Source: Spizellomyces punctatus DAOM BR117
Lineage: Eukaryota
Assembly (NCBI GenBank): GCA_000182565.2
Contig: KQ257456.1
Strand: one strand, 5' to 3'
Length of the DNA: 64,000 nt
Shown here one piece after another: positions 1,344 to 31,396 of this stretch (positions are counted from its first letter, which is position 1; every line of letters begins with the position of its first letter). The notes beneath the pieces are model-generated. The model was not told the origin of the DNA and made no database searches. It worked only from the letters and a program-made list of their open reading frames with translations. A program made the translations under genes and the position numbers.

Positions 1344-3167
1344 ATGGCCATTGAGAATGGAAGGAAGAAGCGCATGCCCTGGGATACGCTGCTTTCTGAT
1401 AGTGAAGAAGATCACGCAGGCCTTATGCCAACCCCGCTCGGCGAGGCACGCTCAAGCGACAGAGAAGTAGCATCCGATCATTCGCAACGTGCCGAAAACA
1501 AGATGGAGACAGTTATCAACAAATTCAAAACCTTTGCTGAACAGGTTGCAACCCAGAAAAGCAGTTGGATTGCTGGCTATGCCTAACGTTCCTTTTTCCT
1601 ATAGTCCTCGTACAGTCCACATCCAGCGCTGAAGGATGATTACATTGGGGAGGGCGAATCCTATCGTAGCGGCAGTAACTAGTACGTGTCGTGCAAAGTT
1701 ATAACTCCTGCGGACAATGGCGGAATTCAGCTCACGTTGTTCTCGCCTGTGCTTAGTGTCCCCAAGTCAAGTCAGGGAGGATCGTTTGGTCATAGCAATA
1801 GCACGAATATCAGTGGAAGGGGGAAGACGTCCAATATTCGTCACACGTTTCCAACATTGCGAGGGGGGTTGACCAAACCTGTAACACTAGACCGGACCAA
1901 GTTCAAAAGAACCCTTCAGCAAAGAGCTCGGGATTTCGAGTTTACGGCACCCGGACCTACTACGGTCTGGCAAAATGGGGTGCCTGCACAGGATGTCCCT
2001 CAAGGTACAAAGGGTAAATCACTTGCCTCGGTTCCCAAGGGCTCGTCGAAGGTGCCTCAGACCAAAAAGGAGCTGAAAGCCCGCTTGGATTCTTTTGAGC
2101 TTTCTCTGGTGTGTGGAGTAATTCATCTGTCGTATTGATGTTTGGAATTGAGACACTGCTGATACGTTATCTTCATCGTCCTTTACTACCCGTAGCCCGG
2201 TCCCACGCAAACATGGATTAAAGGCAAGGCAATTCCGCCAAATCCCGCACCCACAAGGTCGGAGCCACCGCATGTGAAGGATGCTGCACCGCAGGCCGCC
2301 AAAAGTATACCGTTTTCAGTACCTCACACGCCACAAGACGTTAGCAATTCGAGTACACGCTCCCTCCAGGCAGCCGCAACTGACCGGCGTACAGACTCAA
2401 GCTTCGAGGTCATCTGTGATGCCCGACCCAGTCGCTTGTCGCGGGTCCAATCGCACGCCGTGCCAGATAAAAAGTTGGCCAATGGACCTACGGCGCAGAA
2501 TATATCATCTGAAGTGAAGCAACTTCAACAAGACAGTAGCGCAAGCAATCTGGCGTACGCTGATAATGAGGGTGTGCCGCCGTTCTCCAATTCAGCTGCA
2601 ACTATGGAGAACCCCGCTGCGTCGTTGACGGATCTGTCTGCCGCGACATCCCGTATGTCATCAACCACCTCGCATCCTATCGTTAAAATCTTGCCTACCG
2701 ACAACGCGGAATGCGCCAACGAGCAGCCAATGACGGGATCACCCGTGATAGGCGGTAAAAAAGGTAATGGGGTGCCAGCACATGCGTCATTGTGGCCGTC
2801 CTGGACCGGGATACAGACAGTGGGAGAACAACCAAACTGGTCGCACCAAGGATTGCGGCCGTATGCTTTTTCGGCAGAATTGCTCCCCGGCAGTTGGGGC
2901 TACCCTACTCCCTATCCATCAGCATTTCAATTCGTTGGGACATCGCAGGGCCCTCGTCCTGGCAACAATAAAACTCAAGACAATGGAGAGGTTCAGATTA
3001 GGGTGAAGGACAGAGATGGAAAAATGTTAACCCTCTCTCTTGCTGTGGACGACACTGACCCGTCTGCTACCATTTCGCAATTTTGCAATGATCACAATAT
3101 TGGTGGCTATGTGGACTTAGTGAAGAGGATTGCAGAACAGAAGCTGGCGGAGCGCAAGGGACAGTAG
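1344..3167 (+). CDS. Hypothetical multi-exon low-complexity protein with a small C-terminal folded domain
   Basis: ATG in good context (accATGG) at 1344; consecutive + ORFs 1254-1586, 1686-2138 and 2274-3167 separated by short GT..AG gaps; Ser/Pro-rich body; C-terminus VQIRVKDRDGKMLTLSLAVDDTDPSATISQFCNDHNI. Confidence 0.6.
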
Positions 3168-3319
3168 ACGTTAGCGGTGATTCCAAAGAGGTTTCCTTCC
3201 GTCATGTTAAATTGTAACGTCCGATTGATTGTGCAAGGTTGTAGTTTATTGGCCAATTTAACTGAAGAAGCCTCATACTAGCAACAAAAGCAACATGGTA
3301 GATAATCCGTAACCCTTGA

Positions 3320-25494: not shown

Positions 25495-27400
25495 CTAACG
25501 CCCATATCCTTCAATATGCAGCAGTACTCGCACGCCTCGTCGGATCCTTCCGGCACGTCCCCACTCTGGATCCATCTCTACATTGCCATCGACGTCCGAA
25601 CCCCCATCCGAGCTCGTCTCAAACCCATCACCCACAACCCGGCCCAGCCTTCCTACCTCATTCCGTATATCGTCCATCAAACCGACAGGCCCACACCCGT
25701 ATACAGAGACAATTTCACCGGGTCGAGTGTCCAGTTGTGAAAATATGCTTGCAACAGAGAGGCGGCGTGTACCCGTTTTCGGGTTGGTAATGACAAGACG
25801 CGGGACGAGAAGGGAAGTAGCACGAGGATGAGCCAAAAGATCTTGGTATAAGGAAAGTTGTGATGCATTGGGAGCTCGACAGGTCCACCAAAAGTGGATC
25901 TTTTGTATTCGTGGTGGAGGATTTTCGAGTATGGAACGCGCAATGGCAAGACCTCCAGGAATGCCGCTTCCACCGACAACAATAAGAACGTGATCAGAGC
26001 GTAGAAATCGTGGTGGGAGGTTACCATGTGGTCCGTCAATGTAAACTTGAATGTTTGGAGTCCCGCTCTCGGGATCAGTGTTTTCTTGCCATGTCCGCAC
26101 AAGCGATTGCGTCCACGAAGCATCGTGCGCCTGCGGTTTGATGATCAAACTCAGTCCAGGTGCAACAGGAGTGGACCTCGCCAACAAATATTCCATCTCA
26201 GGAGGTCCGCCCCTTCGACGTGGAGGAGAGCTGTTTGCGACAGTAAACGGATGCCATTCCACGTTTGAGACGGCTGGTACGCAGATGGAGACCCACTGTC
26301 CGGGGGCAGCAGGAATGTGACAATCTGCGATATCCAATCGCACATATCCGCAATCCTCCATCGTCAATGATGTGACATTATACGCTCGACGTCGATTGAA
26401 CACTCGTACGCATGAATCGATGATATACAATGTCAAAGTCGGCAAAGCATAGTAGAGCATGGGCGAAGCATGCACGAATGACAAAAGGATGGCCCCCAAC
26501 ACCGCGAAATGATTGAACCAGAACCAATTGAACCGTGTTCGGCGGATAGACTCGAACGAATTCAAAGAGACCCAGAGAAAGAGGAGTAGAGCCACGAGTC
26601 CCACCGGCCCCAACCAGCCTCTATACGAAGCGATCCTCTCATGTGACGCTCCAATCAGCAGCGTTGTTTTCCAAAACTGGGCCCATCCGCTTCGAGCGAG
26701 GCAGTAGGCTGCGAATGCACCAACATGCGCCCCAGCCAGTAGCACCGTCAGTGCTCCAGACCATCTATGAAAGGAGAGAGAATGGTCGTATCCGATTCCA
26801 AACAACGTGGATAGCAATCCATTGCGGGATGTCGGCAATAGGGTCAAGGACAGTTGAATGCCGGCATTGAAAGCAATGGCTTTGTAGGTAGCTCGCCACA
26901 TTCGCTGGGTCGGAGAACTTGAAGAAGAGCGGGAATGGTATTGCGTATACCAATAACAAAATTGAAAGAGCTGATGTCCCAGTACCAACAGCCACACGAT
27001 AATCTCTGCATAGGACCACTTTGTTCTGCGAGAGAGGGATATGTAACGATGTTTCCAAGAGTGCCCATGACCCCATGAGGTTCGTTGCGCCAGAGCAAAT
27101 ACGACAGCAACAACCGCAAGCCAACCATAGAATGCGACGAGACTGGACAACCAACGAGTTGTAAACAGTTAGAGAATTGTGTGGGCTGGCACAAATTCAT
27201 TATCTCTCTTACCTGTTACGCATCTCCGTATTCAAGTGCTCCTTCTCTGGACACACTTGTGACCAACACTTGCCCCCTTTAAACATAACATAGGCGGATA
27301 CGAGTAAACTTCCAGGAAGGACCGTCGCCGCTGTGAATATGGCAATGTGCATTGTCTTGAAGCGGAAAGTATCTTTTCTGGAATCTGACGGAGAAGCCAT
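25495..27400 (-). CDS. Ferric reductase / NADPH-oxidase-family transmembrane flavocytochrome
   Basis: Heme His motifs FHRWSG..H and NH..LSFVH, FAD motif EWHPFT, DGPHG, VGGSGIPG, CGP, terminal HIEGY; short first exon 27400-~27213 then an intron. Confidence 0.9.
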
Positions 27401-27453
27401 GACGGCGTCGTTGTCCTCGTTGCCGTCGTCGTCGTCGTTGTGAAATTACGCAT

Positions 27454-27548
27454 GGGCTTGTCGTTCTAGTTCTTAGTGCGGAGCCGATGGGTATTGGCCC
27501 TAGCACCCGCACCAGGGATTGAACCGCGCGACAACCGGTTCGGAAAAC
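27454..27548 (-). ncRNA. Fanzor omegaRNA: ~75-nt scaffold (27548-27474) plus guide from flanking DNA (from 27473, 3' end approximate)
   Basis: Minus strand GUUUUCCGAACCGGUUGUCGCGCGGUUCAAUCCCUGGUGCGGGUGCUAGGGCCAAUACCCAUCGGCUCCGCACUA|AGAACUAGAACGACAAGCCC; lies ~20 nt after the Fanzor stop, spans the element end, has clear stems, and closely resembles the SpuFz1 omegaRNA scaffold as I recall it. Confidence 0.88.
27476..27506 (+). repeat. Terminal inverted repeat, downstream (omegaRNA) end
   Basis: 31-bp imperfect inverted partner of 29603-29633. Confidence 0.92.
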
Positions 27549-27567
27549 CTAATCTAACCAATCTACG

Positions 27568-29469
27568 CTACGCTACCGCTGGAACACCCCTCCTGAACAC
27601 CTCTGGTCTGCCGTGTCCATCCAACATTGATTGCACGATCGTTACCATATTGCAGGTGCTCAGCGTATCTCGATTCCAGTAGCGCATCGTCCAGGCTTGC
27701 TGCAAACAGTTAGGGTTGGTACAACCCAGCAATCCGTGGACTTTTTCAATCTTGCCTTCGCGTCGCCGCCAAGGTCTTGAATGAGGTCGTGTTTTGAAGC
27801 CTTTTTCAACGCCAGAGGAACAGCAAGGGCAAACAGATGAGGTCTTGTACTCGTCGAGAAGGAAGCAGTTGATCCTGTTGCGCTTAAAGAGGGTGCGCCA
27901 GCCTTTCGTCCTTGATGAGGTCTGAAATCTTGCAGTTCGACCGGCGTCGCTCCAATCACCCATCACAACAGTAAAGTTTTCGCCATACTTGTTGCGCATG
28001 TTGCTTATGAGGTCCGATTCACTTCGCTGCCGATTGATGAAAGAGTGCCACTTCCACCGCGTGTGGGCAGGATGTGAGTAGAACTCCTTTCGACGATCCG
28101 AATCTGCATGATGGCGAACAAGAAGGTAGCGAGTAAAGTCCATGAGGTTCATCGTCTTGTGAGATGGTATTCGTGATTCTATGAGGTCAACTCCAGCTTC
28201 TTTCTTCATTGCTTCTCGTCTCTTTGCAAATCGCCGGCTGCCTGTCTCCATGGCTCGCTGGTTTGCGGTGTAGCGAAACGCTGTACCATTGCTGTCTTGG
28301 CAGTAGAGAATGTCACGCTTGTTTGGGTCGATAACAATGACATTCTCTGCTGCTCGACAAGCAGGTAAGTTTTTCTCCACATAAAGCGCTTTAACCTCTG
28401 CCTCCATCGTGTTTGCTGACTTTTTTCCTCCGCTGCGCTTTCCATACTTGTCTGCTTCTGGGTGCTTTAGGTATACAGACACCGAGGTTCCGTCCGTCGT
28501 GATCGAGCCTTCAAAACACATTCCATGACGAGATCTAAAAGCCTTGTTCTGCAGATTACAGACGCGCAACCATAAATCGACGTTTTCAACAGTTTCCGCT
28601 TCTCGTCGCGTGATGCAAAGAACGTGAGAGTAGAGGATGACGGTGTCGATCCGCACATGGCTTTGGATGAGAGAGCGGCGCAGAGGTATTGCGCTGAACT
28701 GTCGGAATCCATGCTGTTCATATAGGCTTGACAACTGACAATAAGCAGGGAAGAAGGCGAGAGGGTCTACAGCAACTGAATATGCGAGCAGCTGGTCGGA
28801 AAGGGGAATGAAGGACCACATCTCTTCTAGAAGCTCACTCTCTTCAGCGGTCAAGTCATCGAGTGACTCAGGCACGATATCAAAAAGGAAAATTGACTTC
28901 AAGTAGCGAAGACGAGCAAAGAAAGCGTTTCGCGCATCGCTTTTCAGTGGCAGTCGCTGCTTCTGTCCCTTCACATCAAGCCGCAGATTAATGTACCGGA
29001 GCAGCATCATCATGAAGTGTTCCTGGACATTGACCTTCAGATTCGTCATCATACTCGCTGTCAGATAATTGACTGATTGCTGCTCTTTTTGTAGATTTGG
29101 ATGAACGAAGCCGACGATGTTGCAGTACCGTTGGATGTATGGCAACAAGGATTCGCGTAACGCCTTCTTCGCACCGGTTTTTGGTTGCCATGATTCACCT
29201 TTGTTGAGAAGATAGAGGATGGCTTCAATCGTCTCTTGATTTACTGTGGGAAAAACTGGCGCTGATGATGAAAGGAGATAGAATTTCAGCGCGTGGGAAG
29301 CGTGGTCGGCGAGTTGATGGATGATGGCGATGTAATCTAAAAGCCGTTGGCAGTAGATGTCGTTTGGCAGGAAAGCTTTTGCAAAGGAAGTCTTGTTGCA
29401 GGTATGTAAGCAAGTAGGTTTGTCGAGTTTTTCGAGTCTTTCGAGCTTTTGCTTCTTCTTTGGTGGCAT
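27568..29469 (-). CDS. Fz1: Fanzor1 RNA-guided DNA endonuclease (TnpB/Cas12-related RuvC), SpuFz1-like, 633 aa
   Basis: Intronless ORF; N-terminal NLS-like PPKKKQK; SITTDGTSVSV; RuvC-I VIDPNKRD (D381); VVMGDWS; RuvC-II LLDEYKTS (E540); Zn ligands CPCC..CTNPNC; RuvC-III WNRD (D601); very similar to Spizellomyces punctatus Fz1 as recalled. Confidence 0.96.
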   Translation of the reverse strand: MPPKKKQKLERLEKLDKPTCLHTCNKTSFAKAFLPNDIYCQRLLDYIAIIHQLADHASHALKFYLLSSSAPVFPTVNQETIEAILYLLNKGESWQPKTGAKKALRESLLPYIQRYCNIVGFVHPNLQKEQQSVNYLTASMMTNLKVNVQEHFMMMLLRYINLRLDVKGQKQRLPLKSDARNAFFARLRYLKSIFLFDIVPESLDDLTAEESELLEEMWSFIPLSDQLLAYSVAVDPLAFFPAYCQLSSLYEQHGFRQFSAIPLRRSLIQSHVRIDTVILYSHVLCITRREAETVENVDLWLRVCNLQNKAFRSRHGMCFEGSITTDGTSVSVYLKHPEADKYGKRSGGKKSANTMEAEVKALYVEKNLPACRAAENVIVIDPNKRDILYCQDSNGTAFRYTANQRAMETGSRRFAKRREAMKKEAGVDLIESRIPSHKTMNLMDFTRYLLVRHHADSDRRKEFYSHPAHTRWKWHSFINRQRSESDLISNMRNKYGENFTVVMGDWSDAGRTARFQTSSRTKGWRTLFKRNRINCFLLDEYKTSSVCPCCSSGVEKGFKTRPHSRPWRRREGKIEKVHGLLGCTNPNCLQQAWTMRYWNRDTLSTCNMVTIVQSMLDGHGRPEVFRRGVPAVA

Positions 29470-29521
29470 GATGATATCTGTATCTGTGGAAAAGATGAAA
29501 GCCTGGGAAAATGGACGATGA

Positions 29522-29529
29522 CTTATATA
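29522..29529 (-). promoter_or_regulatory. Candidate TATA box for the Fanzor mRNA
   Basis: TATATAAG on the minus strand ~53-60 nt upstream of the Fanzor ATG, inside the element; CCAAT motif further upstream (~29587-29591). Confidence 0.4.
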
Positions 29530-29602
29530 GGATTTTTTGGATCAAACCATAGTTCATGAGTCTAAATCGAGTAAAATTATGATTAAATTGGTTAGAATCT
29601 TT

Positions 29603-29633
29603 GTACTAGTGCCAATACCCATCGGCTCCGCAT
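29603..29633 (-). repeat. Terminal inverted repeat, upstream end
   Basis: 31-bp imperfect inverted partner of 27476-27506. Confidence 0.92.
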
Positions 29634-29637
29634 TATG
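29634..29637 (-). other. Target-adjacent motif 5'-CATA abutting the element's upstream end
   Basis: Plus-strand tatg at 29634-29637 reads CATA on the minus strand immediately before the TIR; CATA is the reported SpuFz1 TAM. Confidence 0.88.
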
Positions 29638-29991
29638 TCCGCATTGTCATCGATCTCCATCATTCCGGTGTCGGAATCACAATCCAGGAAGGCTTACAAA
29701 ATCATTTCAGCTTATCCGATTGGATGAATTCCCCGCGATGAGATTGCACGTGCATCGGTCTCGTGATATCACGCGGCCGTCAGTTCGGCTCTCTGGGTGA
29801 AGCCTCCAACACCATCGGGGATCTCCACCCATTGCATTTCATTGCTGTTCATCTCCAGCGTGCCTTTTTTGCTCGTCTTGATACGTCTTTTATGACCAGA
29901 ATAATCAAATGAATGTATTATGATAATATGGGGCCTAAATTTTACATCTGCAAACTATTATGACTCGCCAACGTCTGTTTTTCTAAACCCA

Positions 29992-31396
29992 TTAACGACG
30001 ACCTCCTGCGGCAAGCCGGTCGGGATAGGTCCGCACTAACTCTTGTCGCAGAATGTCCATCCATTCCGCTCCGTCTCTCCGCGCAAACGTACTGTTCTGC
30101 TTAAAATTTACAATAGATGTTGTCCCGGTCTTGAAGGGATCAATCAGATCAGCATACTGTTGCCGAATGGCAACTGCTTCTGCTACATTCTCCACAAAGA
30201 GCCCATCCATGCCCAGTCGCATAAAGTAAAACAATTCTACGCGCCGGTCCTGTGTCGGTGGGCATCCTTGGACTCGATCACAGTTCAACAGGGCCTTTTC
30301 ATAGCTGCTGTAGAACGTGTACGGAGTTTGCTTCAATCCTCGCTTTTTGATCTCCTTACTCAAATTTTGGGGTGCAATCAGTCCTCCATTGGCTTTAATC
30401 CGAGTCTGAACGTCAGCGGGAATAGGTGCAAGCACTTCGTACTTGTACATATTCTCCGCTCCGACAGTGTAAAGCTCCTTCCATGGCCCGATTGCGGCGG
30501 CGTATTTTGCCACGTCGTCCAGACCCTTTGGAGTAAGCAGATCCACATTGCCATAAATAAGCTGAACGACGGGAAGCTTGGACTTTGTGCCAATGTATTT
30601 GGCGGCTCCTGCCTCAAAGGACTGGATCATGACGGGACCACGCGTCTTTCCGTTTGATGGGTATCCGTACTTGTCGAGGATAGCCAACAGCTTATCTTCC
30701 ATAAAATGAGGGTTCTGGTTCTTGTAGTGCTCATTGTGCCAGGCAGGATGCTTGATCTCGGGTATAATACCGATTTCACGTCCAAGTTTGGCAGAATCTG
30801 CATGGACCAAGTCGAGGTACTCTTCAAACGTGGGGATCGTAAACATGCCGTCAAAGAAGGCAGGTTTCCGCATGTTCCGATTGTCCGGGCCTCCCCCAAC
30901 GACGTTGAGACGGAGTGTTTTAATTTCAGCCAAGGTAAGATCGTGGATCAACCAGTCATTGGTGAGAGTTAAGTTGCCACCACTTCCGTCAATGTCTGGA
31001 ATGGTGACGTTTTTTATGAGGTGAGCGAATTCTGGATGTGCAGCGACATCGGTACTTGATTTAATGGAAAGCTGGATTCTCATTTTCATTAGTCATGTAT
31101 GTGGATCATTTTTATTTCAAGCTTCAACTCACATCGTGATAAATCACAAAATGTCCGTCCTTTGTCAAAACCAGATCCGGCTCGACAAAATCCGCATGCT
31201 CCCAGATACCCATATGGTATGCAGGAAGAGTATGCTCAGGGAGCGAAAAGGCCCTCTCCCCGCGATGACCGATGATCTGCGTCGGTTTGCCATCGATCGT
31301 ATGCCATTTTTTAAGGGAAAGACTAATGGGACTGGCAAGGATCTGTGATGAGGCGATCCAAGCATACGCTGCTGCTGCCAACACCTGAGATTTCAT
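29992..31396 (-). CDS. Secreted glycerophosphodiester phosphodiesterase (GDPD/GlpQ-like)
   Basis: Signal peptide; IIGHRGE..PEHTLPAY..ADFVEPDLVLTKDGHFVIYHD; IPTFEEYL, PEIKHP, IQSFE, MDGLF; one intron at ~31070-31131. Confidence 0.92.

Follow-up and report, generated by a model that had tools for sequence, protein, structure and literature searches.

The closest described system to the locus analyzed here is SpuFz1 (SPPG_07727, 'ID16'; PDB 8gkh), a Fanzor1 nuclease that is encoded within a copy of the transposon SPu-1 in Spizellomyces punctatus. We studied a paralogous copy of SPu-1, which is located in a 64,000-nucleotide stretch of contig KQ257456.1 from S. punctatus DAOM BR117 (assembly GCA_000182565.2; hereafter referred to as the window), and asked how its flanks relate to the target-adjacent motif (TAM) and guide of the nuclease. 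For SpuFz1, the TAM 5'-CATA has been determined in vitro, and small-RNA sequencing revealed an omegaRNA composed of a 75-nt scaffold and a variable guide of 14-15 nt, with the published scaffold ending in ...CGCACTA ('OmegaRNA sequences' sheet; Saito et al. 2023, PMC10432273). The same study described CA as conserved upstream of the 5' repeat in Fanzor (Fz) as well as ghost loci, and the legend of its Extended Data Fig. 3a states that the depicted locus architecture includes TAM regions. Furthermore, its S. punctatus catalog comprises 42 loci that carry a full or partial Fz gene (full length in 19 cases), plus 134 ghost loci; no transposase was found inside any SPu-1, help in trans was proposed, and the biological role of Fanzors was stated to be unknown. 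SPu-1 itself is described, in the available part of Bao and Jurka (2013, PMC3627910), as an element of about 2,100 bp with 33-bp inverted repeats, a 633-aa protein (SPu-1-1p), and TA duplications that are termed 'putative'.

A second point of reference is provided by the TnpB nucleases of bacterial IS200/IS605 elements (e.g., ISDra2, IS608-type), whose TAM is a motif of the left flank and whose guide corresponds to the right flank, so that TAM and target adjoin each other only in the vacant site. In these elements, cleavage by TnpB drives element retention by recombination (PMC10690162 and PMC13565253, for the available parts of both). SPu-1 shares this arrangement of TAM and guide. However, the HUH enzyme TnpA mobilizes IS200/IS605 elements without scars and in single-stranded form, these elements have neither inverted repeats nor a duplication, and their scaffold ends at the element boundary, whereas SPu-1 has inverted repeats, TA on both sides, and a TA inside the scaffold, and homing is extended to it by analogy. 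With its TA inside the scaffold, it resembles IS607 TnpB and other Fanzor1 systems, in whose guide RNAs the right-boundary bases imposed by the transposase are absorbed into the scaffold, with the guide starting beyond them. This absorption of the target-site duplication by Fanzor1 RNAs was described by Yoon et al. (2023, PMC10711439), whose available text deals with IS607 elements and insect-virus Fanzor1s rather than SPu-1 and names Spizellomyces 0 times. Similarly, the available part of a 2026 review (PMC13565253) assigns the 5' target-site duplication to the TAM and the 3' one to the scaffold and frames Fanzors under "transposon restorative homing", and the available part of Jiang et al. 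(2023, PMC10530073) notes for some Fanzors a TAM that corresponds to the insertion site. Finally, SPu-1 resembles Tc1/mariner elements in having TA on both sides as well as inverted repeats, but, unlike them, it has no DDE transposase among its long open reading frames (ORFs) and shows an asymmetric flank preference.

The element in the window spans 2,158 bp (27476-29633) and is read here from left to right on the minus strand, on which the order is CA, TA, element, TA, and a 20-nt flank. On the plus strand, this corresponds to the flank ending at 27473, TA (27474-27475), the element, TA (29634-29635), and TG (29636-29637). The coordinates, letters, and flank order that a preliminary description had given for this arrangement were found to be correct to the base when the window was read again. 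The element ends are formed by an exact inverted repeat of 22 nt (27477-27498 and 29611-29632; 2 matches in the window, 0 in 100 shuffles), which extends to 33 nt at 91% once both TAs are counted. Since TA is palindromic, a target duplication is indistinguishable from terminal bases that belong to the element. The coordinates of all features are compiled in the table at the end of the text.

Both the protein and the right junction identify the locus. Supplementary Data 1 of the SpuFz1 study (Saito et al. 2023, PMC10432273) contains a single occurrence of the N-terminus of the protein encoded in the window, under SPPG_09210, and the exact right junction (repeat end, TA, 20-nt guide, and downstream sequence) is present in supplementary file 5 of that study, near part 13. 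The element is therefore an intact copy of SPu-1, an inverted-repeat, non-autonomous transposon encoding only a Fanzor1 of the SpuFz1 family, and it is an already cataloged copy of the reference family, with an anatomy that was known for SPu-1 in general and for SPPG_09210 in particular. It shares with the SpuFz1 reference locus the family, the genome, a length of about 2.1 kb, TA flanks, inverted repeats of 30-33 bp, and a single Fanzor1 ORF, as well as a 75-nt scaffold whose last two bases are TA, a CATA that precedes the left end, and a variable guide that follows the right end. Unlike the reference, it lies at another genomic site, encodes 633 instead of 638 aa with many substitutions, has a different guide and A instead of G as its left terminal base, and differs at 3 of the 75 scaffold positions.

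In a phmmer comparison with solved structures, residues 2-633 of the ORF aligned with SpuFz1 (PDB 8gkh, Spizellomyces punctatus Fanzor 1) at 1217.6 bits. D381, N383, E540, and D601 align with identical residues of SpuFz1, namely D383, N385, E541, and D606, which were named as its catalytic residues (Saito et al. 2023, PMC10432273). The hallmarks of Fanzor1 proteins are present: the RuvC D-E-D residues, with E540 (LLDEYKTSSVCPCC) preceding by six residues a C4 zinc finger whose cysteines are at positions 547/550 and 583/588, and an RD motif at D601 (WNRD). Among the six TAM-contact residues named for SpuFz1, Q129, Q130, N133, R291, and Y345 are identical, and R96 is replaced by K. Pfam yielded 0 matches for this ORF at E-values up to 0.1. 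No DDE transposase was found among the long ORFs of the element, the only one being the Fanzor; its remaining ORFs are short (≤110 aa), overlap the Fanzor ORF, and were not subjected to a search. CATA-dependent, RNA-guided cleavage is a prediction for the copy in the window and a demonstrated activity for the ID16 paralog only. The public gene model of SPPG_09210 places a predicted intron within the Fanzor ORF (join 1507..2987, 3055..3316). This intron is probably an annotation artifact, since the uninterrupted 633-aa ORF aligns to SpuFz1 through its C-terminus and no RNA joint was found there.

The right end of the element contains a 75-nt sequence that, judged by eye, shares 72 positions with the published SpuFz1 scaffold. 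Since TA forms the last two bases of the latter, the right-hand TA of the window copy is part of the scaffold, and the guide begins directly after it. The predicted fold of the scaffold is not clearly better than those of shuffled sequences (z = -1.8; 8/200 shuffles fold as well), and no Rfam family matched the omegaRNA region at E-values up to 1. The assignment of the right flank directly after the TA as the guide, which had been made in the preliminary description, holds, but the guide length of 20 nt given there is an assumption, with native SpuFz1 guides being 14-15 nt long. Within the 64-kb window, no further match to the guide was found, either as a 20-mer with up to 3 mismatches or as a 15-mer with up to 2.

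Removing the element together with one TA from the window places CATA directly before the sequence running from 27473 to 27454, as in the previously proposed reconstruction of an empty site. The double role that had been ascribed to the duplicated TA agrees with the published TAM and scaffold: the left TA provides the last two TAM bases, and the right TA ends the scaffold. Furthermore, the proposed protection of the filled allele follows from this geometry: in the filled allele, the right end terminates in ACTA directly before the target. The filled and the empty allele therefore differ solely at TAM positions -4 and -3 (ACTA versus CATA), and the protection rests on these two bases, because the right-hand TA mimics the last two bases of the TAM.

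A tabulation of the flanks of other copies, which had been suggested as a check, extended this picture to the family. The 17 additional left ends were taken from the supplementary GenBank records of Saito et al. (15 full-locus records, 1 inverted partial record, and 1 ghost locus), and the 14 right ends include the window locus, a ghost locus, and two omegaRNA entries of Supplementary file 4. Supplementary file 5 was sampled at 15 of 24 left-end motif occurrences and in 11 passages for 21 right-end occurrences, and only copies with an unmutated terminal 10-mer entered the sample. With the window copy included, 16 of 18 left ends show CATA and the remaining 2 show TATA, with A at position -3 in all 18; this agrees with the conservation of CA described by Saito et al. 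for Fz and ghost loci. All 14 right ends show TA followed by unrelated, variable sequence, and the mirror-image TG after TA occurs at 1 of them. For comparison, CA precedes 454 of the 5,862 oriented TA sites in the window (7.7%); at a single locus, CA is weak evidence, but across the family it is clearly not due to chance.

The flank preference is one-sided (CA at 16/18 left ends versus TG at 1/14 right ends) and does not conform to the orientation-free, symmetric insertion that is expected of Tc1/mariner elements. A symmetric, Tc1-like palindromic target preference was considered as the source of the CA and was ruled out, as the right side lacks the mirror TG. The CA is confined to one side even though it adjoins a palindromic TA and nearly symmetric inverted repeats. 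Such a one-sided CA, which a symmetric transposase does not explain, points to either an orientation-specific choice of target or the survival of only those insertions that are flanked by a TAM. We tentatively propose, as an idea that we consider to have less than even odds, that SPu-1 and its ghosts are maintained solely at sites whose left flank provides the TAM of the Fanzor, which would represent a survivorship signature of eukaryotic Fanzor homing, or, alternatively, that target choice is coupled to TAM recognition. The two copies with TATA left ends would then be decayed or doomed.

The two TATA left ends are located near parts 4 and 52 of supplementary file 5, and the latter additionally carries a small deletion just inside the repeat. 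Either C-to-T decay of the TAM or insertion at sites that never had it could account for these two ends. At another locus, near part 12 of the same file, a right end with TA is separated by a few bases from an inverted piece of a left end, about 60 nt long, the outer flank of which is again CATA; this structure corresponds to a nested or rearranged SPu-1 end.

Taken together, TnpB-like retention or homing is the best-supported reading of the locus, and we assign it a probability of roughly 60%. The right end would be transcribed into an omegaRNA, whose scaffold spans the inverted repeat and the TA and whose guide would cover the 14-20 nt of host DNA that directly adjoin the right-hand TA. As the nuclease is expected to need 5'-CATA adjoining its target, and as the CA of the left flank, one TA, and the right flank would be contiguous only in an element-free site, TAM and target would meet only there. 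The nuclease would then cut vacated or naive sites, and, with a filled sister chromatid or homolog serving as the repair template, the element would be restored or copied in. The anatomy, the identity of the protein, its catalytic residues, the scaffold end, the in vitro TAM, and the family-wide CATA at left ends, on which this scheme builds, are established here or in print. What we infer from them is the occurrence of an exact empty site, its cleavage in vivo, and the restoration of the element by repair; in the literature searched, experiments demonstrating homing were not found for any Fanzor. The geometry in the preliminary description was thus right and in line with published data, and its interpretation is partly supported, with the homing step being a plausible analogy to bacterial TnpB; as a whole, its points re-derive a published anatomy and a published hypothesis.

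Several observations weigh against homing as the function of this arrangement. Four public sequencing runs (X22, X21, X4, and X10) were placed on positions 26900-30200 at 90% likeness, with differences listed from 2%. No joint skipping 27476-29635, as expected from an empty allele, was found in the raw DNA reads of X22, for which sensitivity is poor (38-nt reads; summed depth of about 90-134 in the left flank and 28-87 in the right flank), in X21, or in the contigs of X4 and X10, which, although labeled 'DNA?', carry a spliced joint and are therefore RNA-derived and uninformative about DNA alleles. The only two joints listed across the four runs, from 27142 to 27213 (an intron) and from 27969 to 28043 (a deletion variant of a paralog), do not span the element. 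Likewise, a search of metagenome contigs for 15 nt of each flank separated by a gap of 0-12 nt, which has low power, gave 0 matches. The left terminal base of the copy, at 29633, is T on the plus strand (A on the minus strand), in contrast to the G of the 17 other left ends examined, and 127 of 134 DNA reads placed there have C on the plus strand, with which the repeats would be fully complementary. This terminal change might impair mobilization of the copy, and, given this change together with the R96K substitution, the copy may be less mobile or may read its TAM slightly differently. Moreover, no transposase is known for SPu-1, and if the element is moved by a TA-duplicating cut-and-paste enzyme, excision usually leaves a break or a footprint rather than an exact empty site, a point that was missed in the preliminary description. 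Excision of Tc1/mariner elements leaves footprints. Cut-and-paste excision without an exact empty site implies that the target would mainly be the naive allele or the product of rare precise excision.

Expression data bear on the same question. In the RNA run X21, a sharp minus-sense peak lies over the scaffold bin 27455-27565, with a depth of 369 compared to 48 and 1.7 in the adjacent bins; the strand of the first mate was taken as the RNA strand, since both neighboring minus-strand genes give minus first mates. However, these scaffold reads mostly carry the variants of other copies (457/537 at 27519, 462/547 at 27521, and 393/490 at 27553), which likewise counts among the points against homing at this locus. 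The peak fits abundant omegaRNA-like transcripts and indicates that RNA of the family is expressed, but it is not attributable to the guide of the window locus. X21 also contains plus-sense reads over 29231-29674, antisense to the 5' region of the Fanzor gene, at a depth of 46-150, and 78 reads continue beyond the left end, where they enter assorted flanks. Such reads, which may come from any copy, suggest that the left ends are transcribed outward throughout the family.

Other explanations of the arrangement were weighed against homing. CATA could be the integration target of the enzyme that moves SPu-1, with the Fanzor having a different task in vivo, for example on other sequences in trans, directed by the many guides of full and ghost copies, as suggested by Saito et al. 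The missing transposase, the proposed help in trans, and the 134 ghost loci that could supply guides (Saito et al. 2023, PMC10432273) are in keeping with this idea, as is the argument, made in the available part of the 2026 review (PMC13565253), that cut-and-paste excision already makes a break, so that the nuclease adds little. However, in all 14 right ends, the guide is the local, variable right flank, with that of the window locus matching nowhere else in the 64 kb, and a left-only target motif that equals the TAM of the nuclease is the arrangement of bacterial homing systems; we thus consider a purely integrative role of CATA unlikely. It appears even less likely that the window copy is an inert relic, in which the flanks keep the insertion geometry but excision has been lost, so that the homing logic never operates at this site. 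Such a loss would fit the deviating terminal base, for which nearly all reads show the consensus, the failure to detect an omegaRNA of the window locus as such among the X21 scaffold reads, and the lack of an excision joint in the four runs placed on the locus. Against it stand the intact ORF with all catalytic residues and the near-identical scaffold, 72 of whose 75 positions match that of the active SpuFz1; moreover, any of the 19 full-length copies could supply the protein in trans.

Another possibility is that CA, or all of CATA, belongs to the element and that no target is duplicated, in which case the true empty site would lack a TAM and could not be cut. An empty site was not seen for any copy examined, the conservation of CA (16/18) is similar to that of element sequence, and TA duplications are called only 'putative' in the available part of Bao and Jurka (PMC3627910), all of which would be compatible with this assignment. 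The symmetry of the inverted repeats, however, ends at the TA, the mirror TG is missing from 13 of 14 right ends, and it would be a coincidence for a nuclease to require precisely the four bases at its own left edge. We therefore regard an element-derived CATA as very improbable. If the right-hand TA alone belonged to the element, corresponding to an IS605-like insertion 3' of CATA, the empty site would still consist of CATA and the guide sequence, and the logic of the preliminary description would stand.

When the window copy was compared with the reads of other copies placed on it in the DNA run (27476-29633), C>T and G>A differences were found at 106 and 89 places, respectively, compared to 51 for A>G and 56 for T>C, and each type of transversion at 11-22 places. 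The divergence of the SPu-1 family is therefore transition-biased, with its direction unassigned.

With respect to genomic context, the adjacent minus-strand gene encodes a ferric-reductase-like protein (ORF of 551 aa with the Pfam domains Ferric_reduct, FAD_binding_8, and NAD_binding_6). The spliced frame, which was worked out by hand, puts its start codon, an ATG in frame with this ORF once the intron is removed, at 27398-27400, with the element 73 nt upstream. The Fanzor element and its guide target are hence located within the 5' untranslated region or the promoter of this gene.

Features of the SPu-1 copy SPPG_09210 and its surroundings (positions within the 64,000-nt window)
Feature	Position	Strand	Basis or remark
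Flanking CA plus left-hand TA (CATA), the published SpuFz1 TAM	29634-29637	minus	
Left-end inverted repeat arm, including TA	29603-29635		repeat search
Fanzor1 ORF, 633 aa, uninterrupted	27568-29469	minus	ORF list; phmmer against solved structures
Catalytic residue D381	28327-28329	minus	
Catalytic residue E540	27850-27852	minus	
Catalytic residue D601	27667-27669	minus	
OmegaRNA scaffold, 75 nt, ending in right-hand TA (27474-27475)	27474-27548	minus	match to published scaffold
Right-end inverted repeat arm, including TA	27474-27506		repeat search
Right-end flank, predicted guide and target, 20 nt	27454-27473	minus	about 27459-27473 at the native length of 14-15 nt
Intron of adjacent ferric-reductase-like gene, 70 nt, GT..AG	27143-27212	minus	spliced joint in contigs X4 and X10

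As a cataloged copy whose geometry follows from published facts, SPPG_09210 adds nothing new on the role of Fanzors. Its practical value is that of a clean test site, combining a unique guide and an intact nuclease gene with a position 73 nt from the start codon of a ferric-reductase-like gene. If homing by a Fanzor were shown in vivo, this would settle the role that eukaryotic RNA-guided nucleases play for their transposons, and, if true, it would represent a natural, gene-drive-like mechanism in fungi.

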